Source: a virus (taxonomy: Duplodnaviria; Heunggongvirae; Uroviricota; Caudoviricetes). From it: 64,000 nt of DNA. The position numbers were made by a program, and so were the translations under genes. Positions within the stretch are counted from its first letter, which is position 1. Each line of letters begins with the position of its first letter. Positions 45,731 to 63,694 of this stretch are shown here, in pieces. Under the pieces are notes generated by a model. The model was not told the DNA's origin, ran no database searches, and worked only from the letters and a program-made list of their open reading frames with translations. Location of the stretch: IMG/VR virus record IMGVR_UViG_3300028797_000094, positions 38,524 through 102,523 of that record; one strand, 5' to 3'.

Positions 45731-45785
45731 TGAAAACGTTTTCATTAAATTTTCTATTTACATTTTAATGAAGATGTGCTATAAT
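45731..45785 (+). promoter_or_regulatory. Class I sigmaA promoter with cre-like operator
   Basis: TGAAAACGTTTTCA 45731-44; TTTACA 45757-62; 17 bp; TATAAT 45780-85. Confidence 0.85.
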
Positions 45786-45822
45786 ATATATGTAAAATAA
45801 ATTAATAAGGAGGAAAATAAAA

Positions 45823-47559
45823 ATGGAAATTAAATATAAAGTATCAATGATTAATATGTTCTTACAAAAACTATCAGAGCATATTAATGAAGACGATACA
45901 GAAGTAGAAAAAATAAGAGATCTCATTAGTGAATTAAAATGGGAGAATAATAGATATGGAGACAATACTGAAAAGTATTTGTTTTTAGATAATTATTCAA
46001 TCAAAGAATTAGAAGTCCTTAGAGATGCTTTTAAGGACTGTGATGCAAGAAAAAATGTAAAAATTTTAAATATGCTTATTGACAGTTTAAAAAATCCATC
46101 AACTACTGCTTATTCAGATTTAAGAATTTTTGCTGAAGCTTTAGTTAAATATGTTGATGATTTTTCTGAGCACAAATGGTTGTTTAGAAAAGAGGACATA
46201 TGTAATGTTGAATATATTATTCCTTATTTATTATATCATGTTGACTATGTTCCTGAACGAAAAGTTGAAGGATATTTTTATGAAGCACATGTTGATGCTG
46301 AAATTCATACTAATGATATTAAAGGATATAGACGACAAAATATTCATTTTTACTTCAGTGATATTTCAGGAAGAACTTTAACAGAAATATTAACACAACA
46401 AAAAATGTTTATAGAAACACCTGAATTATATGAAGACTATCAAAAATCTGTTTTAAAATATGAAAATAGAATTAAAGAGCAAGGCACTCAATATAAATGT
46501 TTTCAATATGTATCAAAAGATGGATATAGTAATCGTTTTATATCTACAAAAGAAAATGATAATATTTTCGAATTCTATCATGTTATTAATGATATGAGAG
46601 GTGATAATAGACATTGGGTAAAACAAGAAGACTGTCATTTATATCGAAGCTATAAGAAAAAAAGAGAAAAAGATTTTTTCTGCAAAGATTATTATGACCT
46701 TCCAATTATGCCATTTTTATTTGGATATAATTTAGATACTCATAGTGAATGTTATTTTCATGTTGATGATATTGAAAATTATGAATATGATCATTCACTA
46801 AGAGATAAATTAGTTTTACCAGAATCACATAAAAATTTGCTTGATATACTTGTTAATAATTCTTCAATTTTAAAAGGAGACATTATCAATAATAAAGGCA
46901 ATGGAACAGTAGTTATTTTAGAAGGTCCACCAGGATGCGGAAAAACTTTAACTACAGAAGTATATTCAGAACTTATGAATACACCTTTATATAAAGTTAC
47001 CGCAGGTGAATTAGGAACAAATCCAAAAGAAATGGAAAAAACTTTATATGAGGTTTTAAATAAAGCACAGCGTTTAGGCTGTATTATTTTAATTGACGAG
47101 TGTGAAACTTTTGTTAGAAAACGTGCAGAAGACTTAACGCAAAATGCAATTATTACTACTTTTTTAAGACAGCTAGAATATTTTAATGGAATTATGTTTT
47201 TAACAAGTAATAAGATAAAAGATATTGATGATGCTATCTTGTCAAGATGTATTGCGGCAATTAGATATGAAGAACCTACCGAAGAAAACGCTAAAAAGAT
47301 TTGGAGAATATTATCTAAACAATTTGAGCTAGATAAACAAATCACAGATGAATTAATCAATAAATTAGTTAAAGTCTTTCCTAAAGCTGTAGGCCGTGAT
47401 ATTAAAGAATTATTAAAACTTACTGCGAGATATTGTTTAGGATTAAAGAAAGACATAGACATTGAAGCTTTCTTAGCTTGCGCTCAGTTTAGATATATAG
47501 ATGTTAATGAACAATATGTTGAAGAATTAAAAAATAAAGAGGTATCAGAAAATGAATGA
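45823..47559 (+). CDS. AAA+ ATPase with a long N-terminal domain
   Basis: Walker A GPPGCGKT; Walker B ILIDE; FLTSN; ILSRC. Confidence 0.9.
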   Translation: MEIKYKVSMINMFLQKLSEHINEDDTEVEKIRDLISELKWENNRYGDNTEKYLFLDNYSIKELEVLRDAFKDCDARKNVKILNMLIDSLKNPSTTAYSDLRIFAEALVKYVDDFSEHKWLFRKEDICNVEYIIPYLLYHVDYVPERKVEGYFYEAHVDAEIHTNDIKGYRRQNIHFYFSDISGRTLTEILTQQKMFIETPELYEDYQKSVLKYENRIKEQGTQYKCFQYVSKDGYSNRFISTKENDNIFEFYHVINDMRGDNRHWVKQEDCHLYRSYKKKREKDFFCKDYYDLPIMPFLFGYNLDTHSECYFHVDDIENYEYDHSLRDKLVLPESHKNLLDILVNNSSILKGDIINNKGNGTVVILEGPPGCGKTLTTEVYSELMNTPLYKVTAGELGTNPKEMEKTLYEVLNKAQRLGCIILIDECETFVRKRAEDLTQNAIITTFLRQLEYFNGIMFLTSNKIKDIDDAILSRCIAAIRYEEPTEENAKKIWRILSKQFELDKQITDELINKLVKVFPKAVGRDIKELLKLTARYCLGLKKDIDIEAFLACAQFRYIDVNEQYVEELKNKEVSENE

Positions 47560-48202
47560 TATTAGAAACAAATGTATTATTTGTGGCAAAGCTGTTAATG
47601 GCTTTGGAATGATTTGTGACGATTGCAAAGACGCAATTGAGTGGGCAAAGAGATGCATGGAGACTTCAAAGAAACAACGCGAAGGTTATCCATTTATAAA
47701 ACTTCATGAAGAAGAAACAGTTGAAGATGAGCCTGAAGAAGGAACTGTTGATGAAAAAGAGCTGACATATGAAGAAGCTTTAGATATTTTATTATCACAT
47801 GTAGATTTTTCGCTAGAAAATATGATGTGTAAAGATGCTCTTAAAGAAGCTATTGAGTGGGCAAAGAAATGTAAAGCAACACCAGAAATTATTGTTGCTG
47901 ATGGAATTGATGAAAATGCTGTTGAAGAATTATTAAGAAAAGAAAGACCATTTACAAAAGCCAGTGAAATTAAATTGGAAGTTCTAAGTTTTGAAGAACA
48001 ATTAGGTTGTCCATTAGAAGTTAGAGAGAAAGCCTTTGATAAAGGTTTTTATGATGAAAGTGGAAATCATTATACCTGTGAACATTATGTTCCTTATTTA
48101 AAAGAAATGCACACAAGGGGAATTATGTCTCATACTTCAAAGTGTTTCAAACTGAAAGATTACAAAAAGACTTGGTGGCTGAAGGCTGATAAGAGTGAAT
48201 AG
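47552..48202 (+). CDS. Hypothetical protein with N-terminal Zn finger
   Basis: CIICG..ICDDC; repeated EWAK(R/K)C. Confidence 0.7.
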   Translation: MNDIRNKCIICGKAVNGFGMICDDCKDAIEWAKRCMETSKKQREGYPFIKLHEEETVEDEPEEGTVDEKELTYEEALDILLSHVDFSLENMMCKDALKEAIEWAKKCKATPEIIVADGIDENAVEELLRKERPFTKASEIKLEVLSFEEQLGCPLEVREKAFDKGFYDESGNHYTCEHYVPYLKEMHTRGIMSHTSKCFKLKDYKKTWWLKADKSE

Positions 48203-48216
48203 ATATAAAAGGAAAG

Positions 48217-48251
48217 AAGAACTTAAGTATAAAGCTTAAGTTCTTTTTTTT
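48217..48251 (+). terminator. Intrinsic terminator
   Basis: AAGAACTTAAG-TATAAAG-CTTAAGTTCTT plus Ts. Confidence 0.8.
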
Positions 48252-48568
48252 ATTTTGCCCTAGTTAATAAATAGATAGATAATAGTCAGTTAAGGAGCAG
48301 TAAAATAAAAAAAGTAAAAGAACAATATCCTTAACAAGCATTTATCTTCCTCCCCAGTTAAAAAATATAGTATGAAAGAATATCTATCTATATATAATAA
48401 ATAGTAGAACTATATATAGACATAGAGAAGAAGATACTATATATAGACCTATATATAAGCGGGGAACTATATATAGACAGGGAACTAATACTATATATAG
48501 TAAAGATGCTTGAGTCTGAGGCAGACTCTGATTAATAGACTTAGACTTTAGTGAGTTAGTAAAAAGAC

Positions 48569-48604
48569 TTTTGGCCTCACTTTTGGCATCGCTTTTAGCC
48601 TCGC
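48569..48604 (+). repeat. Three 12-bp tandem repeats TTTT(G/A)GC(C/A)TC(A/G)C
   Basis: Direct reading. Confidence 0.75.
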
Positions 48605-48800
48605 TTGGCGGGAATGCTGGCAAGTATTGCAAGCATTATTGCAAGCATCTGGCAGATCAGTGATGAGCTTATTAAATTATTAAATTAATAAATTATTAGT
48701 ATGCTATGTATTGCTATCACTGTCGCAGTGATGCTTTGACATATACTATATAGACTTTAGACTATTAAAAACAAGCACTTTTAGAAAAATCAGACAAATA

Positions 48801-48818
48801 TTTGCTAAAATAAGCGAA
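48801..48818 (+). promoter_or_regulatory. Class III-like promoter in non-coding DNA
   Basis: TTTGCTAAAATAAG; no SD-led ORF follows. Confidence 0.45.
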
Positions 48819-49100
48819 GGGCATTGAAAAGTCATCATAGGCTTTAGCCCACGCCTCACTCAGCAATCGCGCTGAGCTTTTTTTCGCCCACGCTTCGCCC
48901 ACGCCTAGCCTCGCCTCACCACTAAAGCCAGAGCGACCAGCCAAGCTTAAGCCTTGCATTGCCCTATTAGCACTATATATAGTATAGCGCGGAAGCTATG
49001 TAGAGCCAGGCCTTGCTTCTGTCTATATATAGGAAGACTCTAACCTGTATACTATATATAGAGCGGAGCGCGAAGACTAGGAAGAGCACAAGCGCAAAGC

Positions 49101-49378
49101 CGAAATTAAAATCATTTCTGAATTAAATATACTTACCCTAATACTTTTATATGGGCAAAATAAAAACGCGACCACGGCCAAATTTCGAGCTTAAAATCGC
49201 GTTTTTTTATTAGACTATTAAATTAATAAGGGAAATCGCCGAAATTGCCAAATTTGCCGCTGGCGTTGGCAAAATTGGCGAAATTGCCAAAATTAGCTTT
49301 TGCGCTTAGGCGAAATTCGGCAGGTTGGCGAAATTGCCGAAATTGCCCAGATTAGCTTTTTGGCTAATTGCCGAAATT
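49101..49378. repeat. Cluster of CGAAATT/AATTTCG motifs
   Basis: 8 copies, many as GGCGAAATTGCC. Confidence 0.8.
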
Positions 49379-49489
49379 TCCTTTTTTACCTTTTTGTCTA
49401 TATATAGTAAAAAGCCGTAGACTACTATATATAGGCTACAGCTTAATACTTGAAAGAGAATTTATATAATGAAAACAAAACATATTTTT

Positions 49490-49641
49490 TAAAACAGAAA
49501 AGGCCAGGAAAATAAAATTGTTAAAAGAATAACCTGGCCTTGAATGTGAGACAACTAATATATATTTGAGAAAGGAGGATTTGTTTTTTGAATATATATA
49601 GTTAAGGAGGTGTAATTTTTTTATTTGTTATTGCCTCACAT
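49490..49641 (-). ncRNA. Candidate ~150-nt sRNA carrying two anti-Shine-Dalgarno motifs
   Basis: Class II promoter on - (49645-57); nested stems; CACCUCCUUA and UCCUCCUUUCUC; terminator hairpin 49500-49541. Confidence 0.55.
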
Positions 49642-49644
49642 ATT

Positions 49645-49657
49645 ATTATACAATAAA
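49645..49657 (-). promoter_or_regulatory. Class II promoter (minus strand)
   Basis: TTTATTGTATAAT. Confidence 0.65.
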
Positions 49658-49784
49658 CTTTTCAAAAATATATTAGGCTTCAAAAAAAATTTATTGTATA
49701 AAGCGTGGCGCTAACGATACATGCACAGTCGACTCTATTACTATATATAGTATAGGGCGGAGGCTCTATCTGCGCTCACATAAT

Positions 49785-49797
49785 ATTATACAATAAA
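49785..49797 (-). promoter_or_regulatory. Class II promoter (minus strand)
   Basis: TTTATTGTATAAT followed by ATTATGTGAG, like the 49645 copy. Confidence 0.6.
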
Positions 49798-49823
49798 AAG
49801 TACGAAATTTGATCAATTTCGTT

Positions 49824-49887
49824 TGAAAGCGTTTTCATTAAATTCTTTAAATTTTCTATTTACAAATTTGGCCAGATGTGATATAAT
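49824..49887 (+). promoter_or_regulatory. Class I sigmaA promoter with cre-like operator
   Basis: TGAAAGCGTTTTCA; TTTACA 49859; TATAAT 49882. Confidence 0.8.
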
Positions 49888-49924
49888 GTATAATGGGGAA
49901 ATATATATTTTTTTATATATATTA

Positions 49925-49988
49925 TGAAAACGCTTTCGTAAATTTCTTTTAGAAAACTATTTACAAACTAAAGAAAATGTGATATAAT
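49925..49988 (+). promoter_or_regulatory. Class I sigmaA promoter with cre-like operator
   Basis: TGAAAACGCTTTCG; TTTACA 49960; TATAAT 49983. Confidence 0.8.
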
Positions 49989-50116
49989 AAATGGGGAGAT
50001 TTTTTTATTTTTTTTTATTAATAAATTATTAAATTATTAAAACCGTAATTTGCTCAATTTCATATACTAAAAAAATTAAAAATAATTCCCGAAATTACCC
50101 TAATTTCATTATAAAA

Positions 50117-50127
50117 TATTGTATAAT
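50117..50127 (+). promoter_or_regulatory. Class II promoter
   Basis: TATTGTATAAT. Confidence 0.6.
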
Positions 50128-50313
50128 AATATGTAAGGGGAAGTTTCCCATACTATATAATTACGTTAGTAATTATATAGTATTAATTATAGCTATAGCT
50201 ATAGACTTTAGCATAGCTTATATATAGACATATGCTTATATTATATGCTATAGGCTTATACTATAGACATATGCATATGTCATATGGCGCGCACACTTAG
50301 AAAGGAAATCAGT

Positions 50314-50562
50314 ATGGCAAATTTTCAGACCGGGAAAGTTTATATTCATAAGCAAAACGAAATTAGACTAATTTCGCCAGAGCAAATTACTGAGTATTTA
50401 GAGCAGGGCTGGAAGCTTGGCAGTAAAGATTCTAAGCGATGTCATATTCACAAAGATGGAGTCTATAAGAATATCTATACTATATTTCTTCCCGACTATT
50501 TAAAAGCTGGCTGGACATATGGAGCCGCTGGCAAACCAAGAAAAAATAAAAATGTAATTTAG
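50314..50562 (+). CDS. Small protein with two YL..GW..G repeats (homing-endonuclease-type DNA-binding repeats)
   Basis: YIHK..YLEQGWKLG and HIHK..YLKAGWTYG; start may be 50284. Confidence 0.55.
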   Translation: MANFQTGKVYIHKQNEIRLISPEQITEYLEQGWKLGSKDSKRCHIHKDGVYKNIYTIFLPDYLKAGWTYGAAGKPRKNKNVI

Positions 50563-50574
50563 GAGATTTCGTTT

Positions 50575-50871
50575 ATGGATAATAATTTACCAAAGACAAT
50601 TATCAAGTGTCCTCACTGTGGCTATGAGTATACTTTAGAAGAACTATTTTTAGCCAGCGATATTTTAGGAAAGCCTCGCGACTTAGTGCGTGATCCTCTT
50701 GGCAAAATTCTTTACTGCGGCTGAGAAGAAGATAGTGAACCAGAATATAAAACTAAATATATCTGTGATCACTGCAACAAAATTTTTAATGCAGAATTAA
50801 AGATCACAGCTGTAGCTACTAAAGAAGATGAGGCAGTAGACTTTACTAATCTAACAACAAGTCTATTCTAA
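50575..50871 (+). CDS. Zn-ribbon protein, 98 aa (code 4)
   Basis: CPHC..CDHC; one TGA; SD AGGAG. Confidence 0.7.
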
Positions 50872-50897
50872 GAAACGAAATTTGGGAGATTTCAGAA

Positions 50898-52592
50898 ATG
50901 ATATATATTACTGAACTAAAGCCACCATTTAAAATGCCAGGGCTTTCCAGCTTCAGATGCGACTTCCAATATAATCCAGTTTTAGTGGAGGCAGTAAAAG
51001 CCGTGCCAGGATCTACTTGGCATCCGACTCAGAAATTCTGAGAGTTTCCTGCATCGAGCTTAGCTGAAGCTTTAGATACACTAACTATGATTAGTGACAT
51101 CGAGCTACGCTTGGCGCCTGATACCGAAACTTCCGCAATTTCGGAACCACCACTTACTGTAGAAGAAATTAGTGAATTTAAATACAAACCGTTTGACCAT
51201 CAGATAGAAGCTATTAACTATGGGCTATGCCGAAAGAACAAGTGGCTACTATTAGACTCCATGGGTATCGGAAAGAGTCTCGAGATGATGTATTTAGCGG
51301 AGACTCTCCACAAGCGTGGGAAGATCGACCACTGTATGATTATTTGCGGCGTAGATTCACTAAGAACAAATTGGAAGAACGAAATTCAGAAGTTTTCAAA
51401 TTTAGACTGTGTAGTATTAGGCGAATACATTACTAGAAATGGAACTATTAGATACAAGACTATTGAAGAAAGAGCCGAGCAGCTAATTAATCCAATTTCA
51501 GAATTCTTCATTATCGTGAATATCTCTACTATCCGTAATGAAAAAATAGTGAAAGCCTTTAAGAAGTCTAAAAATAAGATCGGAATGATCTGCTTTGACG
51601 AAGCCCACCGAGCTACTACTTCAAGTCAACAGGGAAACAACCTACTAAAGCTTGACTCTGAATACAAGGTAGCCGCATCGGGAACTCCAATCGTAAATTC
51701 CCCAATTTCGGCATTTCTAATGTTGAGCTGAACTGATAATGATAATTCCACTATGACTAATTTCGAGAAGACCTTCTGTAATTTCGGAGGTTTCGGTGGT
51801 AAACAAATAGTAGGATATAAAAATTTAGATTTACTAAAAGATGAATTAGATGCATGTAGCATAAGGAGGACTTTTGATATGGTTAGAGGAGACATGCCAA
51901 CTAAAAATGTAGAGTATGAATTAGTGGAGATGTCAGATGATCACCGTAAATTTTATGAGGCGATCAGAGATGGTGTAAAAGAAGAGGCAGATAAGATATC
52001 ACTAAATTCTGCTAACCTTCTAGCTTTAACCACAAGACTTCGTCAAGCTACTGCTGCGCCTTCTGTGCTAACTAGTAATCCAATAGAGTCTAGTAAAGTG
52101 CTTAGAGCTGTAGAGCTTGCCGAGGATCTATTAGAGTCAGGCGAGAAGGTAGTTATCTTTAGTACATTCGTAGAGCCATGTGAGGTACTCGCATCGAAGC
52201 TTGCCAAATACCAACCACTAATCGCAACAGGCGATATCCCAGATCCTGTGGTTGGAGATAATATTACTAAATTCCGAAATTCAGACAATTTCAATTTGTT
52301 GATCGGAACACATGGAAAATTAGGAACAGGATTTAGTATGCCTGAGTGCCACTATAGTATTATTATCGATACTCCATGGACCGATGCAACTCTCCAACAA
52401 TCAATCGACAGAATTTATAGAATAACCAGTGATCAGCCAATCTTTGTTAAAATTCTTTGCTGCATCGGAACTATTGATGATAGAGTTAGAGAAGTTGTAG
52501 AGAATAAACGAGATTTGGCAGATTTCCTTGTAGATGGCAAATTAACGCCTGCCTTTACTGAGATATTCAGAAATATAATTTTCGACCTTTAA
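50898..52592 (+). CDS. SNF2-family helicase/ATPase, 564 aa (code 4)
   Basis: LLDSMGIGKS, DEAH, ASGTP, QSIDRIYRI; 2 TGA join the fragments. Confidence 0.9.
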
Positions 52593-52595
52593 TAA

Positions 52596-52611
52596 TTGCT
52601 AAATTATTTGT
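52596..52611 (+). promoter_or_regulatory. Class III (late-type) promoter variant
   Basis: TTGCTAAATTATTTGT. Confidence 0.6.
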
Positions 52612-52641
52612 AAAAGCCTAGAATTAACAAAGGAGAAAATT

Positions 52642-54822
52642 ATGGTTAATTATGTTTATGAAGTTAGCTGGAATGAATGTGATGAAAAAGATACATTCCC
52701 TACATTCCCAGAAGCCAAAGATTTTATAAATCAAAAAACTGCTACTGGAAATCCTAATTATGTATCTCCATTCATTTACGAAATAGAATTGGTGGAACAA
52801 GAAGACGGAACTTGGCTACCAACTGGAAATGATGAATGTGTATTTAGTTGGGATGATCAAACAGGCAAACCTGATATTCGTCAACCTAAACTATTTGATG
52901 ATAGTGAATATGAAGGCAAGTTAGCAGACCCTGATTTTGAAATCTATGATGTTTTCGATGTAGATAAGGAACCAAAACCTGCTGAACCAGAGGTTGACCC
53001 ATATGGTGGCCGTAATTTGTTCAATTTCGATGAAGCTCTTTCTGCATTAAATGAAGCTGATGAAGCTTTTGGTGAATGTCAATGTTGTCATGAAGAATTT
53101 CCAAAAGAAGAATTAGTGAAAGAAGGTTCTAGATTCGTTTGTAAAGAATGTGCAGGAAATTTAACAGAAGCTTTAAAGATTATCTCTGACATTAGTGAAT
53201 ATAAGCCTTGGTCAGGCGCTGTAGCTACATGAGACAAGATCGAAGCTGCTAATAAAGTAGATGATTTAGAAGCACTACTAGAAGATGCATATCCTGATGG
53301 ATTAACAATGACTGAATTAAATGACATCTTATGGTTCGACCCTGAATGGATTTTAGAATCTTTAGGATTAGCTACAGAAGATGACGATGTAGAAGAATCA
53401 CTAGAAGATACAGTTCCTCAAGATCTTGCTGATGACCGTACACCAAAACAAGGTAACGTGTTTAAGCTAGAACAACCTGTGGATTATAAAGCTGAGATCG
53501 CTAAGGAAAAATTAGTGGATGAAGAGCTACATGAAGATGTAGAATTAACAGAAGCTATTTTTGATGGACATAAAGAAGTTGCTAAAATTTGTGATAGCAA
53601 AGGAAAAGAAGCTACTAAAACTTATGCTGTCTATGATCGTTTAAATAAAAAAGTTCTTGAATATGTAGCAGAATTAGATGATGCTATTAATAAATGTAAA
53701 GGAACTTATGGTGAAAATATTACTGCAATTGTGCTAGTTAAAAATAACACAGAAGCTAATATTGAGTCTAATGTAATTTTAGCTGAATACAGACAAGGTA
53801 AAGAAACTAAAAATAATTTTAAAGCAGCCTTAGCAAAATTAAAAGCTGCTCAAAAAGTTACAAATTCTGGTTCAGTTGAATTAAATTCTGAAGAAGAACC
53901 AAAAGAGGAACCTAAGGAAGAACCAAAAGAAGAACCAAAGGAAGAAGAAAAGCCTGAGGAAGAACCAAAGGAAGAAGAAAAACCTGAAGGAGATGCTGGT
54001 AAAGAACGTTCATTATCTGCTGCTACTGCAAAAGAAGTATATAATGAAATTAAAACTAAACTAGATGCTGAAGGTTTACTTGATAAGGAAAAAACAGATC
54101 CAAAACTTGTTGGTAATATTAAGAGAGGACTTACATTCCTTGGTAAAGCTTTTACAGCTGCTGTTAAGGAAGGAGCTTCTGCAGAAGAATCATTAGAAAC
54201 TCCTGCTGAAAATGTTTTAGTAGAAGATTTAGACCAAGACTTGGCTAAATGAAATGAATATGTTAAATTCTTACAAGAACAGATTGCTTTAGAAGAAAAA
54301 GCTTTAGAAGAAGCTAAGGATAATGAATTAGTGAAGAAAGCTATTCAAAGAAAGATCGATCTTTACAAAGAAGACCTTGAAGAAGCACTTCCAAATTTAG
54401 TAAAAGATAGTGATGCCGAAATTGAAGCAATTTCAGAAGATGAACTTGAAGCTGTTGAAGAAGAATTAGATACAGCTACCAATGAATCTGTTACTGTAGA
54501 AGTTAAACAACCACTAAAAGAATCATTTAATGAAGATGAATTTAAACGTTACATGGCTGCTGCAGAAAAACTTGGAATCAAGACAGGCGCAGACATGATG
54601 AAATTTAGTAAAGAACATGGCGATGTAAAGGATAAAGCTTTACTAGATGCTATGGAAGCTGCTGCTAATGAACTTCATGAAGATGTAGATCCTAAATCTG
54701 AACATGCACCTGTAGAAGAACCAGAAGAAGATGAAGTTGTAAAAGTAATTAATGATTATGCTGATTCTTGAGCTGATCTACCAGGAGAAGGAAAGTTAGA
54801 ACCTGATAAAGAAGAAAAATAA
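52642..54822 (+). CDS. Acidic multidomain late protein, putative internal head polyprotein, 726 aa (code 4)
   Basis: Three track ORFs joined across TGA; L-x-E motifs; Zn finger; KEEP repeats. Confidence 0.7.
53893..53985 (+). repeat. Tandem KEEP/KEEEKPE coding repeats
   Basis: EEEPKEEPKEEPKEEPKEEEKPEEEPKEEEKPE. Confidence 0.85.
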
Positions 54823-55502: not shown

Positions 55503-55515
55503 AATTATACAATTA

Positions 55516-55570
55516 TGAAAGCGTTTTCATAAACTTTTCTATTTACAAATTATAATTTTTGTGATATAAT
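55516..55570 (+). promoter_or_regulatory. Class I sigmaA promoter with cre-like operator
   Basis: TGAAAGCGTTTTCA; TTTACA 55542; TATAAT 55565. Confidence 0.85.
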
Positions 55571-55601
55571 TTATGTGTAAAATAAATTACGGAGGAATAT
55601 T

Positions 55602-55841
55602 ATGGAAAAAGAAAAAGAATTTATTGAACAAATTTTAACTATCAGAGATTATTGGGCAAACATTCATCCTAATAATGGCAAAGAGGCAATTGATGGCTTT
55701 ATTCATTCATTATTAGTTATGTTTGATGGCGATGCTGGTGCAAATGATTTTCATTTTATTGTACTAACAGATGCAGTTGATCAACAAAATATTAATGATC
55801 AATATCCGCTACATGAAGTATTTCATATGATGAATAAATAA
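55602..55841 (+). CDS. Early hypothetical protein
   Basis: SD GGAGG. Confidence 0.75.
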   Translation: MEKEKEFIEQILTIRDYWANIHPNNGKEAIDGFIHSLLVMFDGDAGANDFHFIVLTDAVDQQNINDQYPLHEVFHMMNK

Positions 55842-55896
55842 TGAAAACGTTTTCATTAAAAAAACTATTTACAAATAATTTAAATCGTGATATAAT
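55842..55896 (+). promoter_or_regulatory. Class I sigmaA promoter with cre-like operator
   Basis: TGAAAACGTTTTCA; TTTACA 55868; TATAAT 55891. Confidence 0.85.
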
Positions 55897-55931: not shown

Positions 55932-56393
55932 ATGAGATTACAACATGAACGTTCTTATTACAATGCAGAAAATGTTTTAGTTAGATTAGAAACTATGATT
56001 GCTGATGGTTGGTCAAAACCAATTAGATCAGTGTATGATGAATTATCAATCTTTGATTGGTGGCCAGAAAAGTTAACAGTATTTCATATGAAACAAATGA
56101 GAACATTTTTAAAGACTGCTATTAAGTTAGGTTATAAAGGTTATGTTTGTTTTAAGGTTGGTGCTTCTGGTTGTGCTAATGGTATGTGGGCTTCTAAAGC
56201 AGAAGGCAAAGTTCAAAATGGCGATATTTATTCACCAGATGGCGAAGCAATTTATCGTTCATTTACACCAGATTATACTTATTATAGTTTCTGTGATAAA
56301 GATGAAAATTGGTATCCAGCACAAGAAGAGTTTGATTCTTTAAAGACAACTAAGATGCTTGAACAAGCATTACAAGCAGCAGGTATAATTTAA
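55932..56393 (+). CDS. Early hypothetical protein
   Basis: SD GAGGAGG; 5 Trp, all TGG. Confidence 0.8.
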   Translation: MRLQHERSYYNAENVLVRLETMIADGWSKPIRSVYDELSIFDWWPEKLTVFHMKQMRTFLKTAIKLGYKGYVCFKVGASGCANGMWASKAEGKVQNGDIYSPDGEAIYRSFTPDYTYYSFCDKDENWYPAQEEFDSLKTTKMLEQALQAAGII

Positions 56394-56458
56394 GGAAAGC
56401 GTTTTCATACGCTTTCTTTAAAAAAACTATTTACAAAATGTTCAAACTGTGATATAAT
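56394..56458 (+). promoter_or_regulatory. Class I sigmaA promoter with cre-like operator
   Basis: GGAAAGCGTTTTCA plus overlapping half-site ACGCTTTC; TTTACA 56430; TATAAT 56453. Confidence 0.8.
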
Positions 56459-56487: not shown

Positions 56488-56730
56488 ATGGAAAAAGTTT
56501 TTATTACAAGAGCACTTCCTTGTGCAGGCGGATTGGTTGTTGAAGATGCAGTACGTTATAATGTTGATGCAACTGTTGTTTATACAGATGGCAATATTGA
56601 TTATGTTGTTTTAGCAGGAACTAAATTTGATCTTTATGATTTTTTAATGGATAATTTTTCTGAAGATGATTATGATTATAATAAAATTCTTAATGAAGCA
56701 ACATTAGTTAAATATGAAATGGAGGACTAA
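56488..56730 (+). CDS. Early hypothetical protein
   Basis: SD AAGGAGG. Confidence 0.7.
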   Translation: MEKVFITRALPCAGGLVVEDAVRYNVDATVVYTDGNIDYVVLAGTKFDLYDFLMDNFSEDDYDYNKILNEATLVKYEMED

Positions 56731-56731
56731 T

Positions 56732-57016
56732 ATGGAATACATTCATAGAGAAACAGGCAAGACTTATAAAAAATTTATTCAGGCAGAAGTAGAATATCAC
56801 AGAGCAATTTGTGGTGGACTAAATGAATTAGTTAAAGTTGAAAACTTAGAACTTCCAACTAAGAAAGATATTTATAATCATGTTCGTGCTGAGAAGAAAA
56901 TAATTGCAAGTGAATGCAAATATAATACAGTTCGTGATAATATATTTTATAGAATATATTATGGTGCAACAATTTATAAACCAATGGAGGAAAATAATGG
57001 AAAAGAAAGTTGTTAA
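56732..57016 (+). CDS. Early hypothetical protein
   Basis: SD GGAGG; start moved. Confidence 0.7.
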   Translation: MEYIHRETGKTYKKFIQAEVEYHRAICGGLNELVKVENLELPTKKDIYNHVRAEKKIIASECKYNTVRDNIFYRIYYGATIYKPMEENNGKESC

Positions 57017-57509
57017 TGTTTTTGGTAGAAATAATTATTTATTAGGTGTTGACAAAGATAATATCAGATATTATATTGAAGAACCTAATTTTGATTGTGG
57101 TTGGTATTGGGGAGGTTTATATATAGAAACATTTACAAACAATTATCAACCAACAAGATCTGTTGATATTAGCACACATTCACATTTTGATTCTATGTTT
57201 TTAAATAGCACAGATTCATTTGGACCTGAAGTATTTAAGAAAAGATTTAAAACTACTGTGTTGACAGATGATGAGTTGTGGAAGCTTTTAGAATTAGGTC
57301 GTACTTTCTATACTCTTAGAAGTGCTGCTGATTTATTTCATATTGGTGGAAGTCATATTACAAGAAATAATTGTTATGATGTTATTAAAGACCAAGATAT
57401 GTATGAACAAATAGTGAAGGTTAAGATCCCAGCATTGGTTGCAGAAATACTACAATTATTAGGCGGAACAAAGACTGCAAAAGATTTTGAAAATAAAGTA
57501 AAATTTTAG
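56997..57509 (+). CDS. Early hypothetical protein
   Basis: SD GGAGG; FDCGWYW motif; start moved. Confidence 0.75.
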   Translation: MEKKVVNVFGRNNYLLGVDKDNIRYYIEEPNFDCGWYWGGLYIETFTNNYQPTRSVDISTHSHFDSMFLNSTDSFGPEVFKKRFKTTVLTDDELWKLLELGRTFYTLRSAADLFHIGGSHITRNNCYDVIKDQDMYEQIVKVKIPALVAEILQLLGGTKTAKDFENKVKF

Positions 57510-57564
57510 GAAAGCGCTTTCATAGCGTTTTTCTATTTACAAATTAAATAAATTGTGATATAAT
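57509..57564 (+). promoter_or_regulatory. Class I sigmaA promoter with cre-like operator
   Basis: GGAAAGCGCTTTCA; TTTACA 57536; TATAAT 57559. Confidence 0.85.
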
Positions 57565-57594
57565 ATAACTATAAAATAAATAAGGAGAAAAAAT

Positions 57595-57903
57595 ATGTTA
57601 ACAGAAAGTTTAAAAAAGAAAGTTCAATTTGTTAAAGAAATCAGTGAGGCTGTTGTTAAAGTTCAACCAAATGTTATTGGAATGAGCTATGAAGTTTATC
57701 AAAGCAAAAAGAATCCAAAATGGATTACTGAGTTTTTAATTGTTAATTATGATGGTGGAGCAATGTCAGTTAGAAATTGTTCAGCTACAAGTTGTAGTGG
57801 AATCTTTAAAGAGATTGCTAAGCTATTAGATCATGGCTATTATGATGAATTAGATTATTACACTGATATCATCAATAGCGATTCGGAGTTAATCAGTGAA
57901 TAG
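57595..57903 (+). CDS. Early hypothetical protein
   Basis: SD AAGGAG. Confidence 0.75.
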   Translation: MLTESLKKKVQFVKEISEAVVKVQPNVIGMSYEVYQSKKNPKWITEFLIVNYDGGAMSVRNCSATSCSGIFKEIAKLLDHGYYDELDYYTDIINSDSELISE

Positions 57904-58276
57904 CGATATTATGGATCTACTGACTGAAGAACTTCTTGAGTTGGTAGAGCGAGCTGAAGCTAAGCGACATCTAAACTTACAAAGAATAGAGTCGCTTAGA
58001 GACTACAGCGATGCAAAGACCGAGCGAAAGAAAACAAAAATTTATGCAGACTGTTTTAAAAAAGTTTCTGTTAATCTTTTAGAAAAATATACAGAAGCAT
58101 TAAAACAGAATCAAAGAGATATTACTTTACTAACCGATGCAAATCTTTTAGATGAGTATGCGGCATTTTATCGTGAAGAAGTTGAAATGTATGATAATAT
58201 AATAAATGAATATTATGATTATCTAAAACAGGGACACATTATAGATGCATTTTTAGGAAAAGAAAGAGAGGACTAA
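57896..58276 (+). CDS. Early coiled-coil hypothetical protein
   Basis: SD GGAG, GTG start. Confidence 0.65.
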   Translation: MNSDIMDLLTEELLELVERAEAKRHLNLQRIESLRDYSDAKTERKKTKIYADCFKKVSVNLLEKYTEALKQNQRDITLLTDANLLDEYAAFYREEVEMYDNIINEYYDYLKQGHIIDAFLGKERED

Positions 58277-58280
58277 ATGT

Positions 58281-58463
58281 ATGAAGCGCAGGATTCATCT
58301 ACGTGATAATATTAGTGGCAAAGACATTACAGGTACTGTAGAGATTCCTGCAAAGGATCATTTAGCAGCACAACAAAAGTACAAAGCCAAAGTGTTCAAA
58401 CCAAAGAAAGGCAAAGGTTCATTTACCCGCCGAAAGAAACATAAGAAACAGGAAGAAGAATAA
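58281..58463 (+). CDS. ArfA-like basic peptide (putative ribosome rescue factor)
   Basis: KVFKPKKGKGSFTRRKKH resembles the ArfA motif KKGKGSYxRKxKH; SD GAGG. Confidence 0.55.
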   Translation: MKRRIHLRDNISGKDITGTVEIPAKDHLAAQQKYKAKVFKPKKGKGSFTRRKKHKKQEEE

Positions 58464-58528
58464 TGAAAGCGTTTTCATAAAACTTTTTTCAATTTTCTAT
58501 TTACAAACTTTTTATTTTGTGATATAAT
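58464..58528 (+). promoter_or_regulatory. Class I sigmaA promoter with cre-like operator
   Basis: TGAAAGCGTTTTCA; TTTACA 58500; TATAAT 58523. Confidence 0.85.
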
Positions 58529-58558
58529 ATTAGTGTAAGATAAATTAAGGAGGATATT

Positions 58559-59089: not shown

Positions 59090-59098
59090 GAGGACACT

Positions 59099-59521
59099 AT
59101 GGGAACTTTATGGATGAAAGATAATACACTATCACAAGAAACAATAGATCGTCGTAGAACTTATCTTGAGAAAAGTGAAAAGCTAAATGAAGTTGCTAAA
59201 GATTACTTTAAGGTCTTAGGCTTTAAAGTAATCAAGCATAAGTTTGGTTACAAAGCTTGCAAGAGTGATGTTGACTTAACTTTCTATTTTGGTGCAACTG
59301 TTGTTGATACTTGTTGGAGCTATGCTGAAAATCATGGTGAATATAGAGTTCATGCTAAAATACCTTATACTGATATTGAAGTTGCTGATTTTTATATTAA
59401 ACTTAACACAGTAGAAACTGATGCTGAAGAAGAAACTAAAATTAGAAAGTTATTTGCTGATAGTGATTTTGATAAGCTTGTAAGATGGAGACTTCCATAT
59501 ACAAATAAAAAGTTTATTTAA
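59099..59521 (+). CDS. Early hypothetical protein
   Basis: SD AGGAGG. Confidence 0.75.
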   Translation: MGTLWMKDNTLSQETIDRRRTYLEKSEKLNEVAKDYFKVLGFKVIKHKFGYKACKSDVDLTFYFGATVVDTCWSYAENHGEYRVHAKIPYTDIEVADFYIKLNTVETDAEEETKIRKLFADSDFDKLVRWRLPYTNKKFI

Positions 59522-59542
59522 AAAGTAGAGGAAGAGGATTTA

Positions 59543-59607
59543 TGAAAACGTTTTCATAGATCTTTTTTCAAAAAACTATTTACAAATTTAAATATTTGTG
59601 ATATAAT
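59543..59607 (+). promoter_or_regulatory. Class I sigmaA promoter with cre-like operator
   Basis: TGAAAACGTTTTCA; TTTACA 59579; TATAAT 59602. Confidence 0.85.
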
Positions 59608-59646
59608 ATAAGTGTAAAAATAAATAAAGCAAGGAGGATAGTATTT

Positions 59647-60363
59647 ATGTTTTACAAAACTGGTGTTGATATTTGCAATAATCGTTCAATGTATGATTTT
59701 CTAAATAATCATTTTATGTACGATACAATGAACAGTTGGAATGGATTGAAGAGCATTGCTAATAATGTTAAGATTTATAACTTACATTTAGAAGGCGATG
59801 AATGGGAAGCATTAAAAGCTTTAGAGCGTGATGAGTATTTTGAAGTTAATGATATGATTGAAGATTGGGAATATCTTCATAAAGGTTATAAAGTTGGCTT
59901 CAATGGTCGTTCAGGCGGATACTTAGTATTATATAGTGATAATGATAATGGAAATATTTTACCTGATTATTTATATGGATTTGATTCATATGAAGACTTC
60001 AAAGATCATTATCTAACTTATAATTATGGCACAATGTCAGATGCTAAGAATGAACTTAGAGGTTATGTTGAATTAGTTCGTGATTTTGATGTGTTGTGTG
60101 ATCGTATTCGTGATTATGTTAATGAACTTTCTAAGAGAGATTTAATGGCAGATTATCTTGAAGATGTTGTTGAAGCTTTTAATGAACATTATTGTGATGA
60201 TTTAGCTTGGCTTGAGTTTTCTGGATTAGAAGTTATAGATGGTCAAGTTGATTTAAGTGAAATCAATCAATTACAATGTTTAAGTGATGCATTTTTAAAT
60301 ATGTTCAATAATGATTATAAAATTGTTATTGAAGAAAGTGTTTTAAGATTGGAGGCAAAATAA
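59647..60363 (+). CDS. Early hypothetical protein
   Basis: SD AAGGAGG; GFNGRSGGYLVL motif. Confidence 0.8.
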   Translation: MFYKTGVDICNNRSMYDFLNNHFMYDTMNSWNGLKSIANNVKIYNLHLEGDEWEALKALERDEYFEVNDMIEDWEYLHKGYKVGFNGRSGGYLVLYSDNDNGNILPDYLYGFDSYEDFKDHYLTYNYGTMSDAKNELRGYVELVRDFDVLCDRIRDYVNELSKRDLMADYLEDVVEAFNEHYCDDLAWLEFSGLEVIDGQVDLSEINQLQCLSDAFLNMFNNDYKIVIEESVLRLEAK

Positions 60364-60800
60364 TGGCTGATGTAGTTATTAAATGTTCAGGTAAGATGCG
60401 AGAAATTGAAATTGATCCAGTTTCAGAATTAGATGCTGAGCTTGATGAAGACTTAGTAGAAGCAAATGAAGAAGACTTCACTGATGTAGAGGAGTTAGAT
60501 GCAGACACTAATGAAAAAGTTGTCTACCAAGTTTGGTTATTAGGTCGTGGTGAGTTTGATGATGTTAATGATTTTACATATTTAATTGACGACTACAATG
60601 ATGTAGAAGAGGCAATTAAATGTTGGAACTTCTTTAATGAAAACGAAATTAGTCTAATTAAGAATAAAGATGAAAACTTCTTTATTCCTGCTGATATATA
60701 TTCAGTAGATTTAGTTGTTGAAGAAGTTGCAGTTGATGAAGATGGCAATGAAGAATGTTTTAATATAGTAAGAGAGACTAATATTAAAACAAAGGCGTAA
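60363..60800 (+). CDS. Acidic early hypothetical protein
   Basis: TAATG coupling. Confidence 0.75.
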   Translation: MADVVIKCSGKMREIEIDPVSELDAELDEDLVEANEEDFTDVEELDADTNEKVVYQVWLLGRGEFDDVNDFTYLIDDYNDVEEAIKCWNFFNENEISLIKNKDENFFIPADIYSVDLVVEEVAVDEDGNEECFNIVRETNIKTKA

Positions 60801-60803
60801 GTT

Positions 60804-61400
60804 ATGAAGCGTAGAAATAAACTTCACGCTTATCAGAGAGCTTCTGAGCGCTTAGGCTTACATAGACTTGAGACTGAGCGCTTAGTGAAAGAAGCTTGGT
60901 CAGCAGGCAAGACTTATAATGAGCTTGAAGATGGACCACTTAGAAATTATGTTTATCATAAGAGTAGAAAGAAGAAAGTTAAAGTATATAAAAACATTTT
61001 ATTTATCTTTAACAAGACGAGCAAGACTTGTATTACAATGTATAAAATACCTAACAAAATTTTATTATTAGAAGAAAGGAATCAAGAAATGAAAAAGAGT
61101 AAAAATGTTAGAAGTAAATATTTAGGATTACAATTTTTAAATAGTGAAGGTCAAGTATGGACAGTTGTGAGAGTTTCAAAGACTTCGTACAACAACTATC
61201 GTTTCAATTTGAGTCGTGCTGCAGAAAATGATGCAACTAAGACAATTTCAATTACAAGCAAGACAATGAAAAAGCTTGCTACAAGTTATTTAACTATTGA
61301 AGATATCTTAACACACAAAGAAGATTTAAGAAAGAAAAATATCAATACTTACAGAAATACTTCTTGGTATACTTGGAGCGAGGCTAAGAGTTGTAAGTAA
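60804..61400 (+). CDS. Basic early hypothetical protein (possibly two domains)
   Basis: ORF; HAYQRASERLG. Confidence 0.65.
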   Translation: MKRRNKLHAYQRASERLGLHRLETERLVKEAWSAGKTYNELEDGPLRNYVYHKSRKKKVKVYKNILFIFNKTSKTCITMYKIPNKILLLEERNQEMKKSKNVRSKYLGLQFLNSEGQVWTVVRVSKTSYNNYRFNLSRAAENDATKTISITSKTMKKLATSYLTIEDILTHKEDLRKKNINTYRNTSWYTWSEAKSCK

Positions 61401-61425
61401 AAAACGAAATTAAGGAGGTTTCGTT

Positions 61426-62280
61426 ATGTTCAAATTATTTATTGAAGATTTAAAACAAGCAGCATCTTTTTTAGAAAAGAGCTGGAAAGAATATACAGTT
61501 ACGCAATTAGCGAATATGTTATGTCAAGCAATGGATGATGGCGATGATTTAATGATCAACGCCACATTCAGTGGTTTGATGCTACATTATCAACCGATGA
61601 TGGTGAAGATGTACCAAAAACATGGACGCGTATTAAAAATGGAGATCGGTGATATTGCATCTTGGTTTAGTAGATCTATTATGCAAGCGTGTGATCCTAA
61701 AAACAGAACATGGCAAAAGAAAGAAAAGAATTGCAGTGCTGGAACCGTAATTAATCAAATTTTAAATACAAGATATATTGCAATGGCTTATTATGAATCT
61801 AACTTAGATCTACACAAAGCTAACTTCGCCACTACAAGTTTAGATGCGCCACTTGATTATGATACAGATGATACAAGAGCAGACTTATTGGTGAGCGAAT
61901 ATCCTACACCAAGTGATCAATTTAGTGGAGCTTATGCAATAATCCAAGATCTGTTAGATGATAATAAGATCATTGAAGCTATCATCGCAGAAACAATTGC
62001 TTACAACGATTGCTACAAAGTTAATAGCAAGACAGTTAAAGAAGTTGGCGAAGATGGAACAGTTAAGAAGTATAAAAATATATCTACTGAGTTTTGGGCT
62101 TATAGAGCAGTGCAAATCTTATCTAACTTGCCTGAGAATTATGAAGATTATTTCTTAGACAGATTTAATGTAGATAAAGAAATGTTTGAAACAGGTTTGA
62201 ACAAGATTAGAACTTCTAAAAACCCTAAACTTTATGAGTATTTAGAGTCAACAAAAAATTGCTTGAGATCTATTTTATAG
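61426..62280 (+). CDS. Putative phage sigma-like factor
   Basis: Region-2-like helices and TTSLDAPLD; weak recognition. Confidence 0.45.
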   Translation: MFKLFIEDLKQAASFLEKSWKEYTVTQLANMLCQAMDDGDDLMINATFSGLMLHYQPMMVKMYQKHGRVLKMEIGDIASWFSRSIMQACDPKNRTWQKKEKNCSAGTVINQILNTRYIAMAYYESNLDLHKANFATTSLDAPLDYDTDDTRADLLVSEYPTPSDQFSGAYAIIQDLLDDNKIIEAIIAETIAYNDCYKVNSKTVKEVGEDGTVKKYKNISTEFWAYRAVQILSNLPENYEDYFLDRFNVDKEMFETGLNKIRTSKNPKLYEYLESTKNCLRSIL

Positions 62281-62290
62281 ATTTCAAGTT

Positions 62291-62303
62291 TTTATTGTAT
62301 AAT
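62291..62303 (+). promoter_or_regulatory. Class II promoter
   Basis: TTTATTGTATAAT. Confidence 0.65.
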
Positions 62304-62355
62304 AATAGAGAAACGTAATTTCTGTAATTTCGTTAATTTCATTTTGGAGGTTTTT

Positions 62356-63078
62356 ATGTATAAAGATATAATGTCGCCACATGCTTTTGGCAGATACAAT
62401 ATTTATTTAGTGCAACTAATTGGATTAGAAGCTGCAGTGTATTGGGAACTGTTGTATTCTATTTCTGACCTGGCCTACAGTAAGTGTGAGAGAAAAGAAA
62501 CACTAAATACTAAAGGATACTTCACAGTAGACCGTAAATATGTCAAGGAAAGAACAGGAGTCGCTACTGAGCAGCAAAGAACTTATGATCGCGCTTTCAT
62601 GAAGATGGGTGCAGTGATAATTAGTGAAGAAGATTCCGATGCGCTTTATGTGGATAATGGTGTGATGATTAAATTTCTAACTTCCGAAATTTCAAATTCA
62701 GAGAAAAAGAAGATCTTTACAGAAGCTTTATCTGATGGCAAATTAGTGATTAGAGAGCAAAAAGGAGCTGCGAAGAAGAATGGCATGATCTCGCGCTGGA
62801 AACAATGGGTGAGCGGATCAGAAGAGTTACTCGCAGCATATGCTGAAGCTTTTAGTGTTTGGTATAGCGCAGGCATGCAGACCGATGCGATGATTAAAGC
62901 AAAGATTGATGCAGTAGAAACTGCCACTAAAGATGAAGGATTAAAGATAGAGATCTTAAGAAGAGCTACACAAAGTGGATACAGAGATCTTGAGGCAGTG
63001 ATCTGGAGAGCTAAACAGGATTACAATCCACTAAAAAATCAGAAGACTTCTACAGGAATTGGGAATCAGGTATTTTAA
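62356..63078 (+). CDS. Putative replication initiator (N-terminal winged helix)
   Basis: YNIYLVQLIGLEAAVY..GYFTVDRKYVKERTGV..QQR pattern of phage initiators. Confidence 0.55.
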   Translation: MYKDIMSPHAFGRYNIYLVQLIGLEAAVYWELLYSISDLAYSKCERKETLNTKGYFTVDRKYVKERTGVATEQQRTYDRAFMKMGAVIISEEDSDALYVDNGVMIKFLTSEISNSEKKKIFTEALSDGKLVIREQKGAAKKNGMISRWKQWVSGSEELLAAYAEAFSVWYSAGMQTDAMIKAKIDAVETATKDEGLKIEILRRATQSGYRDLEAVIWRAKQDYNPLKNQKTSTGIGNQVF

Positions 63079-63106
63079 AAGATCAGGTTTAAATCTGGTC
63101 TTTTTA
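63078..63106 (+). terminator. Intrinsic terminator
   Basis: AAAGATCAGG-TTTAAA-TCTGGTCTTT plus Ts. Confidence 0.75.
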
Positions 63107-63119
63107 TTTTACTTAAAAA

Positions 63120-63174
63120 TGAAAACGTTTTCATTGTTTTTTCTATTTACAAATATTTTGTTTTATGATATAAT
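63120..63174 (+). promoter_or_regulatory. Class I sigmaA promoter with cre-like operator
   Basis: TGAAAACGTTTTCA; TTTACA 63146; TATAAT 63169. Confidence 0.85.
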
Positions 63175-63206
63175 ATATATAGAAAATTAAGTAAGAGGTA
63201 TAATAA

Positions 63207-63635
63207 ATGAAAGTAAAGTTTGATTTTAATTTAGATGCGTGGATTCAAAATCTTGAAATTGAGGCTGACTCTATAGAACAAGCAAAAGACAAACTAATGT
63301 CTATGTCTTTAGAAGATATGATCGAAGCTGGTGCTTATATGAAAGACTTTAATATCGACTCAGTTGACACAGAAATTACTGAAGCAACTTATACTGTTAA
63401 AGTTGTTAGTATTGATTATGCTATTGAAAGTTATGATGTAGATGAGTTTGATACTATGTCTGATGAAGAAGTAGAAGCAGAGATCGCTAGAGTTAAATCA
63501 AGTCTTCCACAAGAACTTGAATTAGAAATTGAATGTGAGCCTGATGATCTAGATGATTATGTTGCTGATGCTATATCAGATGAAACAGGCTGGTTAGTTA
63601 ATGACTGTGAATATGAAATCGTGAGTAAGAGATAA
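63207..63635 (+). CDS. Acidic early hypothetical protein
   Basis: SD GAGG. Confidence 0.75.
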   Translation: MKVKFDFNLDAWIQNLEIEADSIEQAKDKLMSMSLEDMIEAGAYMKDFNIDSVDTEITEATYTVKVVSIDYAIESYDVDEFDTMSDEEVEAEIARVKSSLPQELELEIECEPDDLDDYVADAISDETGWLVNDCEYEIVSKR

Positions 63636-63639
63636 TCTC

Positions 63640-63694
63640 TGAAAGCATTTTCATTATAAAAACTATTTACAAATTGTTTAAAATATGATATAAT
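63640..63694 (+). promoter_or_regulatory. Class I sigmaA promoter with cre-like operator
   Basis: TGAAAGCATTTTCA; TTTACA 63666; TATAAT 63689. Confidence 0.8.

Follow-up and report, generated by a model that had tools for sequence, protein, structure and literature searches.

What protein, if any, reads a 14-bp palindrome that a large phage has placed in front of one early promoter after another, and what would the phage gain from it? This question is raised by a 64,000-nucleotide stretch of DNA (hereafter the window) that comprises positions 38,524–102,523 of the IMG/VR record IMGVR_UViG_3300028797_000094 (G000), a Caudoviricetes genome of 237,392 bp that is complete according to CheckV and has a G + C (GC) content of 29%. 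The public sequencing runs containing G000 are bovine gut metagenomes, and its SNF2 helicase shares 62% identity with the one encoded by JS_HF2_S141_scaffold_159238, which represents the Jade clade in Borges et al., a paper whose text names no explicit host phylum for Jade; a megablast search of the phage collection gave no match. An original prediction, made from the sequence alone, held that eleven early promoters of the window carry operators resembling the catabolite-responsive elements (cre) bound by CcpA in Bacillota, in a geometry suited for activation. On balance we lean towards the view, based on sequence comparison, that CcpA of the host in complex with HPr phosphorylated at Ser46 (HPr-Ser46-P) binds these palindromes with a positive effect on early transcription.

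When the window was searched for TGAAARCGYTTTCA with up to two mismatches, 12 matches were found against 1.67 expected, a number reached by none of 100 shuffled sequences, and 11 palindromes had at most one mismatch. Promoters of the form TTTACA-N16-18-TATAAT were likewise found 11 times (0.51 expected), all on the plus strand and all with a 17-nt spacer, and the two sets proved to be paired, such that each palindrome is the upstream partner of one promoter and 11 of 11 promoters carry TGAAARCGYTTTCA. All 11 palindromes were hereby recovered exactly where the original prediction had placed them, together with their pairing to every promoter of this type, and its statement that the palindrome occurs nowhere else in the window also stood, the sole additional match (62586) having two mismatches, lying inside an open reading frame (ORF) and being at chance level. 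Measured from start to start, the distance from palindrome to −35 box was 26 nt in five units, 27 nt in one, 35 nt in two and 36 nt in three, which equals the previously given distances of 19.5, 20.5, 28.5 and 29.5 from palindrome centre to −35 box. The window promoters also share an extended −10 element (TGTGaTATAAT or TATGaTATAAT), a CTA ahead of the −35 box and A/T tracts upstream.

The count of eleven is correct for the window but not for the genome, in which we found 18 palindrome–promoter units, 17 of them within positions 84,254–110,694, including six beyond the window end (genome 102,896–110,694), and one at 234,187. One unit of the genome adds another spacing, of 46 nt. All 18 sites, those of the window included, lie within one mismatch of TGAAARCGYTTTCA, and every intergenic G000 promoter having perfect hexamers and the TG of an extended −10 element bears the palindrome (18 of 18). 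The genome scan for cre that had been suggested as a check gave 12 matches to the strict published 16-mer consensus WTGNNARCGNWWWCAW, with 0.4 expected, and 10 of the 12 are located at the palindrome promoters. The term genome-wide regulon, as originally used, is apt for all sigma-A-type promoters but not for class II and late promoters.

Weight matrices for CcpA have been derived from B. subtilis transcriptome data by Marciniak et al., with TGAAAGCGCTTTCA as the high-affinity and TGAAARCGYTTTCW as the low-affinity form (PMC3463425). The phage 14-mer TGAAARCGYTTTCA is identical to the B. subtilis matrix consensus letter for letter, including the purine/pyrimidine freedom at positions 6 and 9, so that the match to the Bacillota cre consensus goes beyond the cre-like character first proposed (PMC3463425). 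Using a position weight matrix (PWM) counted by hand from the 31 high-affinity cre boxes in Table 3 of that study, we obtained for the phage sites a median of 18.9 of a possible 23.3 bits, and the base frequencies of phage sites and B. subtilis cre boxes correlated at 0.93. Variation was analyzed with 91 independent sites from G000, its sister phage G001 and metagenome relatives. Substitutions were seen at positions 1, 3 (A replaced by T, giving the classic TGTAA variant), 6 (A/G), 9 (T/C) and 14, with G2, A4, A5, C7, G8, T10 and C13 essentially fixed, as in cre. By sequence, the sites accordingly have the form of cre (WTGNNARCGNWWWCAW or TGAAARCGYTTTCW, a pseudo-palindrome of 14–16 bp with a central CG), and by geometry they also have its placement, on a fixed face of the helix upstream of the −35 box. 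Binding of cre by CcpA is increased more than 100-fold in affinity by HPr-Ser46-P, and the action of cre presupposes an organism that encodes CcpA, HPr and the HPr kinase/phosphorylase (HPrK/P).

The palindromes are not UP elements, which are non-palindromic A/T-rich tracts at −40 to −60 lacking a G/C core, since they have an invariant CG centre as well as G2 and C13; the A-tracts located between palindrome and −35 box (AAAAAACTA) are UP-like, and these are present also in relatives without the palindrome. Neither are the promoters of the AR9/phiKZ type used by virion RNA polymerases (RNAP), for which the early consensus in AR9 is the AT-rich AAATATATATTAT-N6-G (PMC5312081), recognised by a multisubunit RNAP of the phage, as they display the sigma-A form with an extended −10 element and no Rpb1 or Rpb2 domains were found in the genome.

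The spacing between palindrome and promoter follows the DNA helix. Taking G000 together with the sister phage G001 (IMGVR_UViG_3300021400_000048, 223 kb, with early proteins 34–88% identical to those of G000), we found spacings of 26 (18 units), 27 (2), 35 (4), 36 (6), 37 (3) and 46 nt (1), placing the site centres 19.5–20.5, 28.5–30.5 or 39.5 bp away, as counted from the first −35 base. The Rayleigh statistic at a 10.5-bp period was R = 0.93 (n = 34), a value that overstates independence as the units may share descent. In a metagenome scan we obtained 81 further distinct units, located on many rumen-type contigs, having spacings of 26 (50 units), 27 (2), 35 (3), 36 (19) and 37 nt (7). The phasing implied by the two spacing classes about one helical turn apart, as initially described, is therefore real, with the same classes recurring in the metagenome units and G000 and G001 adding the spacing of 46 nt. 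Two orthologous genes have a spacing of 36 nt in G000 and of 26 nt in G001, exactly 10 bp apart, and a third has 36 and 37 nt, so that the phase has been kept through independent indels. Purifying selection acts on the palindrome. In the same-spacing orthologous pairs of G000 and G001, of which there are only two, identity was 93% for the palindrome, 92% for the −35 box and 100% for the −10 box, as compared to 42% for the linker and 45% for the upstream flank, and in an information profile of 19 aligned units the palindrome was as conserved as the core hexamers, with nothing conserved further upstream.

Whether the phage itself encodes a protein for these sites was assessed by six-frame searches of the whole genome, for which positive controls were matched in every search except that for T7-type RNAP. 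These revealed in G000 no match at E ≤ 1 to the LacI helix-turn-helix (HTH) domain (PF00356) or to Peripla_BP_3 (PF13377), no HTH_3, sigma-70 region 2 or 4, or HPr domain, and no Rpb1, Rpb2 or T7-type RNAP domain, the T7-type search being without a matching positive control. As neither a phage RNAP nor a phage sigma factor was detectable, the promoters must be read by host RNAP, and as no LacI-type phage protein was detectable, the sole available LacI-type binder should be that of the host. A phage LacI-family factor, which the original prediction had named as an alternative and as something to look for, is not supported, none being found in the six-frame searches of G000 and G001, and PF00356 had no match in G001, in the related phage G008 or in the unrelated phage G002. 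Among approximately 40 early-region ORFs no DNA-binding family was found using Pfam, with 10 of them negative also against PHROGs, and lineage-specific early proteins gave no DNA-binding lead when four were used in PDB-sequence and three in Atlas searches. A protein of 103 residues (genome 103,014–103,325), encoded behind a palindrome promoter even in a mixed contig, was considered as a candidate autoregulating binder and was rejected because its family is widespread and present in the palindrome-free G008. No recognised lysogeny module was found in the G000 regions examined.

The eleven units of the window, with spacings given from start to start, are the following.

45731–45785, plus strand: palindrome (45731–45744) and TTTACA-17-TATAAT promoter, spacing 26; drives the AAA ATPase gene 45823–47559.
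49824–49887, plus strand: palindrome and promoter, spacing 35; leading member of a tandem pair, lacking any ORF over about 300 nt.
49925–49988, plus strand: palindrome (one mismatch, ending TTTCG) and promoter, spacing 35; other member of this pair, located upstream of the SNF2-helicase block.
55516–55570, plus strand: palindrome and promoter, spacing 26; directly after a hairpin resembling an intrinsic terminator; drives a 79-residue ORF, 55602–55841.
55842–55896, plus strand: palindrome and promoter, spacing 26; drives a 153-residue ORF, 55932–56393.
56394–56458, plus strand: palindrome (starting GGAAAG, one mismatch) and promoter, spacing 36; drives the ORFs spanning 56488–57509.
57509–57564, plus strand: palindrome (one mismatch) and promoter, spacing 27; drives the ORFs spanning 57595–58463.
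58464–58528, plus strand: palindrome and promoter, spacing 36; the orthologous G001 promoter has spacing 26.
59543–59607, plus strand: palindrome and promoter, spacing 36; drives an operon of five genes, 59647–63078; spacing 26 in the G001 orthologue.
63120–63174, plus strand: palindrome and promoter, spacing 26; preceded by a terminator-like hairpin; drives the ORF 63207–63635.
63640–63694, plus strand: palindrome (central CA in place of CG, one mismatch) and promoter, spacing 26; drives the ORF 63720–63893.

The genes behind the palindrome promoters are small ORFans without in-frame TGA, plus the AAA ATPase. Alone outside of the early block, the unit at 234,187–234,241 (L277:9187–9241) precedes an array of 18 tRNA genes (L277:9260–12093) by about 20 nt; the UGA-suppressor tRNA at genome position 229,814 (L277:4814–4888) has a separate promoter with no palindrome. 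The two tandem units are 100 bp apart and are followed, within 49824–50314, by ATGGGGA and T-rich tracts, an arrangement that is kept in G001 and, without palindromes, also in the relative L285. The ORF-free stretch behind them may be a leader or a small RNA; an Rfam scan of the window gave no match. In nearly all units of G000, G001 and the relatives, (G/A)TGTAAA or TATAGAA is found 5–12 nt past the −10 box (e.g. 55576–55584), which may be a start-site or discriminator signal. The AAA ATPase gene (45823–47559) ends with TGA in the standard code, and reading TGA as Trp would extend it by two codons only, so that TGA seems to be a true stop in this early gene, though late genes read TGA as Trp. 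Its nearest phage homologues are distant AR9/PBS1 proteins at 39% identity, and a single-protein locus search found no kin. Between class I promoters, the SNF2 helicase and the next large ORF (50898–54822) have two to three in-frame TGA codons and a local GC content of up to 35%, and this part looks like a middle- or late-coded island within the early block.

Relatives of G000 show how the palindrome is distributed. More than 115 diverse contigs of IMG/VR contain the bare core promoter (CTATTTACAAA-N12-TGATATAAT), and only 1 of 116 (G001) has the palindrome upstream. Arrays of these early promoters without the palindrome are found in more distant relatives, which include L283, L285, G008 (IMGVR_UViG_3300033463_000007, complete, 232 kb) and the Jade representative, having helicases 57, 60, 57 and 62% identical to that of G000, respectively, whereas mixed metagenome contigs have one to three palindrome promoters among 5–18; the short contigs L310 and L311 were uninformative. 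In place of the palindrome, G008 and the Jade representative have a TTYGCTCAAAAA box beside the −35 box. At all 12 G008 early promoters (e.g. G008 69,972–93,683; also L281:21071) this asymmetric TTYGCTCAAAAA box ends about 4 nt before the −35 box, and further metagenome relatives carry TGTCAAAAAA or TTATCAAAA boxes upstream, as lineage-specific modules on a core promoter that is otherwise the same. The palindrome thus represents a regulatory input added on outside of the promoter proper, with its use differing by lineage, and because related phages use the same core promoters without it, it should modulate these promoters without being required by them. Its sequence is constant in contigs with early proteins only 46–58% identical to those of G000, and such a constant operator together with diverging early proteins is easier to explain with a slowly evolving host binder than with a fast-evolving phage ORFan.

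The same motif was sought in bacteria. A composite of the palindrome, 10–34 nt, TTTACA, 16–18 nt and TATAAT had three occurrences in 185,579 species genomes. One of the three is in a rumen Erysipelotrichaceae metagenome-assembled genome (MAG), where the palindrome precedes the −35 box by 27 nt, immediately upstream of gap-pgk-tpi, and in a related low-GC MAG it overlaps the promoter of a gene that we tentatively take, from reading its N-terminus, to be arcA (arginine deiminase). The arcA gene is a classic CcpA-repressed target. Candidate rumen Bacilli MAGs encode one or two LacI-family, CcpA-like proteins scoring 171–199 bits, below the TIGR01481 cut-off of 442, and their small genomes contain one to three perfect 14-mers each. 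The 201 genomes surveyed from that MAG order held too few real promoters to set a preferred cre phase. A promoter of super-consensus form, CTATTTACA-N14-TGNTATAAT, had no match in 81 genomes belonging to the candidate MAG order and hence gives no host clue. The host is predicted to be a CcpA-bearing member of the Bacillota.

According to the reading that we favour, the 14-bp palindromes would be cre that serve as docking sites for a host CcpA dimer complexed with HPr-Ser46-P, lying on one helix face, with centres near −55, −64 or −74, ahead of all promoters that would be usable by host sigma-A RNAP at DNA entry. The promoters would be read by host sigma-A RNAP, high glycolytic flux would lead to occupancy of the sites by CcpA/HPr-Ser-P, and such occupancy would stimulate early transcription (host-takeover ORFans, the AAA ATPase and the tRNA array) through a class-I-like contact or a bend, with starved cells supporting basal promoter activity only. 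Both the binder and the sign of the effect are predictions, the positive effect being proposed because of the analogy with ackA and pta. A cre upstream of the −35 box has been linked to activation for ackA, pta and ilvB, with an effect that depends on the helix face (PMC3463425), in agreement with what the original prediction had stated for ackA and pta, and for ackA2 the centre of the cre lies 22 bp upstream of the −35 box (PMC3074128). More tentatively, and with somewhat greater doubt than belief on our part, the entire time-zero programme of a virulent jumbo phage, i.e. all host-readable promoters including that of the tRNA array, could stand under the control of host CcpA/HPr-Ser-P, in which case a full launch would take place only in energised cells, with idling in starved ones. 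This catabolite activation regulon would have been gained in one sublineage of TGA-recoded Jade-type rumen phages, in which promoters already present would have received cre in steps of one helical turn.

Several observations weigh against activation by host CcpA. The same early core promoters are found without the palindrome in L283, L285, G008, the Jade representative and the mixed contigs, and as a near-consensus core works without it there, the need for an activator is not obvious. Positions 11 and 12 are invariant in the phage sites but degenerate in B. subtilis, giving a correlation of per-position information content of only 0.31, and the phage sites are much more uniform and symmetric than those of any natural cre regulon. 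That the host possesses CcpA and HPrK is an assumption, made because the promoter and Shine-Dalgarno features are Bacillota-like. An upstream cre can also repress, as in the lev operon (PMC3463425). In MAGs L351–L354, from the GTDB order of RUG14309, a perfect palindrome lies 22–23 nt before the −35 box of putative lipoprotein genes, so called on the basis of an N-terminal signal peptide with a lipobox cysteine. In helical phase these MAG sites differ by about one-third of a turn from the phage sites, and likewise from the site at the gap promoter (27 nt). An upstream location of cre does not automatically mean activation. Finally, an unrelated phage, G002 (IMGVR_UViG_3300010330_000002, 61,208 bp, GC 40%, terminal repeats; L023–L026), has 13 invariant copies of (A)GTGAAAACGTTTTCAC(T) dispersed over its whole genome, the majority lying upstream of ribosome-binding sites at a distance of a few bases, and such copies of the same core in another context show that a palindrome of this kind need not mean CcpA. 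In G002, which has no LacI gene, GTGAAAATATTTTCA repeats are also clustered near 28.2 kb, and phage G003 is of the same kind.

Some of these points would suit a phage-encoded dimeric DNA-binding protein of unrecognised fold, with the resemblance of its operator to cre being coincidence or mimicry. Such a protein could be an early product that shuts off or tunes the early promoters, or a factor delivered with the virion, and we regard it as unlikely although deserving serious attention. It would agree with the lineage-restricted occurrence of the palindrome (at all class I promoters of G000 and G001, a subset in some contigs and none in G008, L283 and L285), with the other upstream boxes that the latter three carry instead, with 69 G000 genes, many of them ORFans, that are common to G001 and absent from G008, with the unusual perfection and uniformity of the sites, and with the 13 invariant copies in G002, which lacks a LacI gene. 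The searches described above, however, detected none of the HTH_3, LacI and sigma region 4 domains in the whole of G000 and no DNA-binding family in the early ORFs that were compared with Pfam, PHROGs, PDB sequences and Atlas, and the agreement with the CcpA matrix at 14 of 14 positions, including the R6/Y9 degeneracy, would have to be due to chance. Moreover, the operator has remained constant while early proteins diverged to about 50% identity, an activator must pre-exist any phage gene expression, and a repressor bound at −55 to −75 would be poorly placed to block a consensus promoter.

Host CcpA might also bind in a role other than activation, either damping the early promoters under sugar excess or being titrated by a sponge of about 18 sites, whereby very high-affinity sites on each genome copy would draw CcpA off the host regulon as the phage replicates. 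The site quality, at the top of the CcpA PWM scale as compared to only one to three perfect 14-mers per bacterial genome, the core promoters that look self-sufficient in relatives, and the repression that an upstream cre can exert at lev all fit with this possibility, which we nonetheless judge to be rather improbable. A pure decoy needs no fixed distance or phase, yet the sites keep 26/27 or 35–37 nt and orthologues jump by 10 bp, and with regard to damping, no site overlaps a −35 or −10 box or falls downstream, these being the usual repressing positions. Finally, the palindrome could be a binder-less passenger of a promoter cassette that has spread by recombination through a hyperplastic early region, like the promoter-early stem-loops (PeSL) of T4-type phages. 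The units do occur about every 1.5 kb between ORFan cassettes and often beside terminator hairpins, but we find this explanation very hard to believe, considering that the palindrome is conserved while linker and flanks diverge (93% versus 42–45%), that spacing changes only in steps of about 10 bp, and that relatives have gained or lost the palindrome separately from the core promoter.

If CcpA is the binder, G000 would provide a clean natural case of a lytic phage reading the carbon and energy status of its host at every early promoter, and this would help to explain feeding-linked phage dynamics in the rumen and the stalling of infection upon starvation. The approximately 100 natural, phased and near-optimal cre–promoter fusions would be a resource for dissecting activation by CcpA, which is still poorly understood, and the idea is open to tests in B. 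subtilis without the need of culturing phage or host. The comparative series, from no palindrome via a few to all promoters, may also show how an input from a host regulator joins a viral promoter set.

Host global regulators acting at phage early promoters are already known. No phage-wide cre regulon was known to the original prediction and, in line with this, our literature searches found no phage with cre over its whole early promoter set, the closest case being a single cre in a Staphylococcus aureus prophage. In the virulent Bacillus phages phi29 and Nf, boxes for Spo0A are found at early promoters, which Spo0A represses, thereby reporting entry into sporulation (PMC2731898). The likeness is that the early promoters of a lytic phage carry sites, predicted ones in G000, for a global regulator of the host, so that infection would follow host physiology, but phi29 and Nf have few Spo0A sites that overlap the promoters, whereas G000 has candidate CcpA sites lying upstream and covering the whole early promoter set. 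In the S. aureus prophage PhiSa3XN, a cre in the cI promoter lets host CcpA link glucose to the phage decision, with binding demonstrated by electrophoretic mobility shift assay (PMC12607152). That is a single degenerate site repressing the repressor gene of a temperate phage, in contrast to the 18 consensus sites upstream of jumbo-phage early promoters in G000.

With regard to geometry, class I activation by CRP in E. coli takes place from −61.5, −71.5 and −82.5. The likeness lies in a dimeric regulator placed upstream, at positions one helical turn apart and on the same face as RNAP; CRP differs from CcpA in protein family, signal and phylum, and the contact of CcpA with the alpha subunit of RNAP is much less well defined. 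The T4-type PeSL cassettes consist of a promoter and an RNA stem-loop and are thought to drive recombination. Both they and the G000 units are repeated early-promoter modules that punctuate an array of small ORFans, but the G000 repeat is an untranscribed, operator-like palindrome under its own selection. In sequence and placement there is a likeness to the cre of B. subtilis ackA, pta and ilvB, which have the same 14-bp consensus with a central CG and TG...CA ends, upstream of the −35 element, with a dependence on helix face (PMC3463425, PMC3074128). Unlike ackA, which needs an additional upstream sequence, the phage sites have no such conserved extra sequence, and as compared to the activated cre of B. 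subtilis they are viral, present at every sigma-A promoter (18 of 18), near-perfect and symmetric, and distributed over three phased positions, with a role for CcpA that is predicted.

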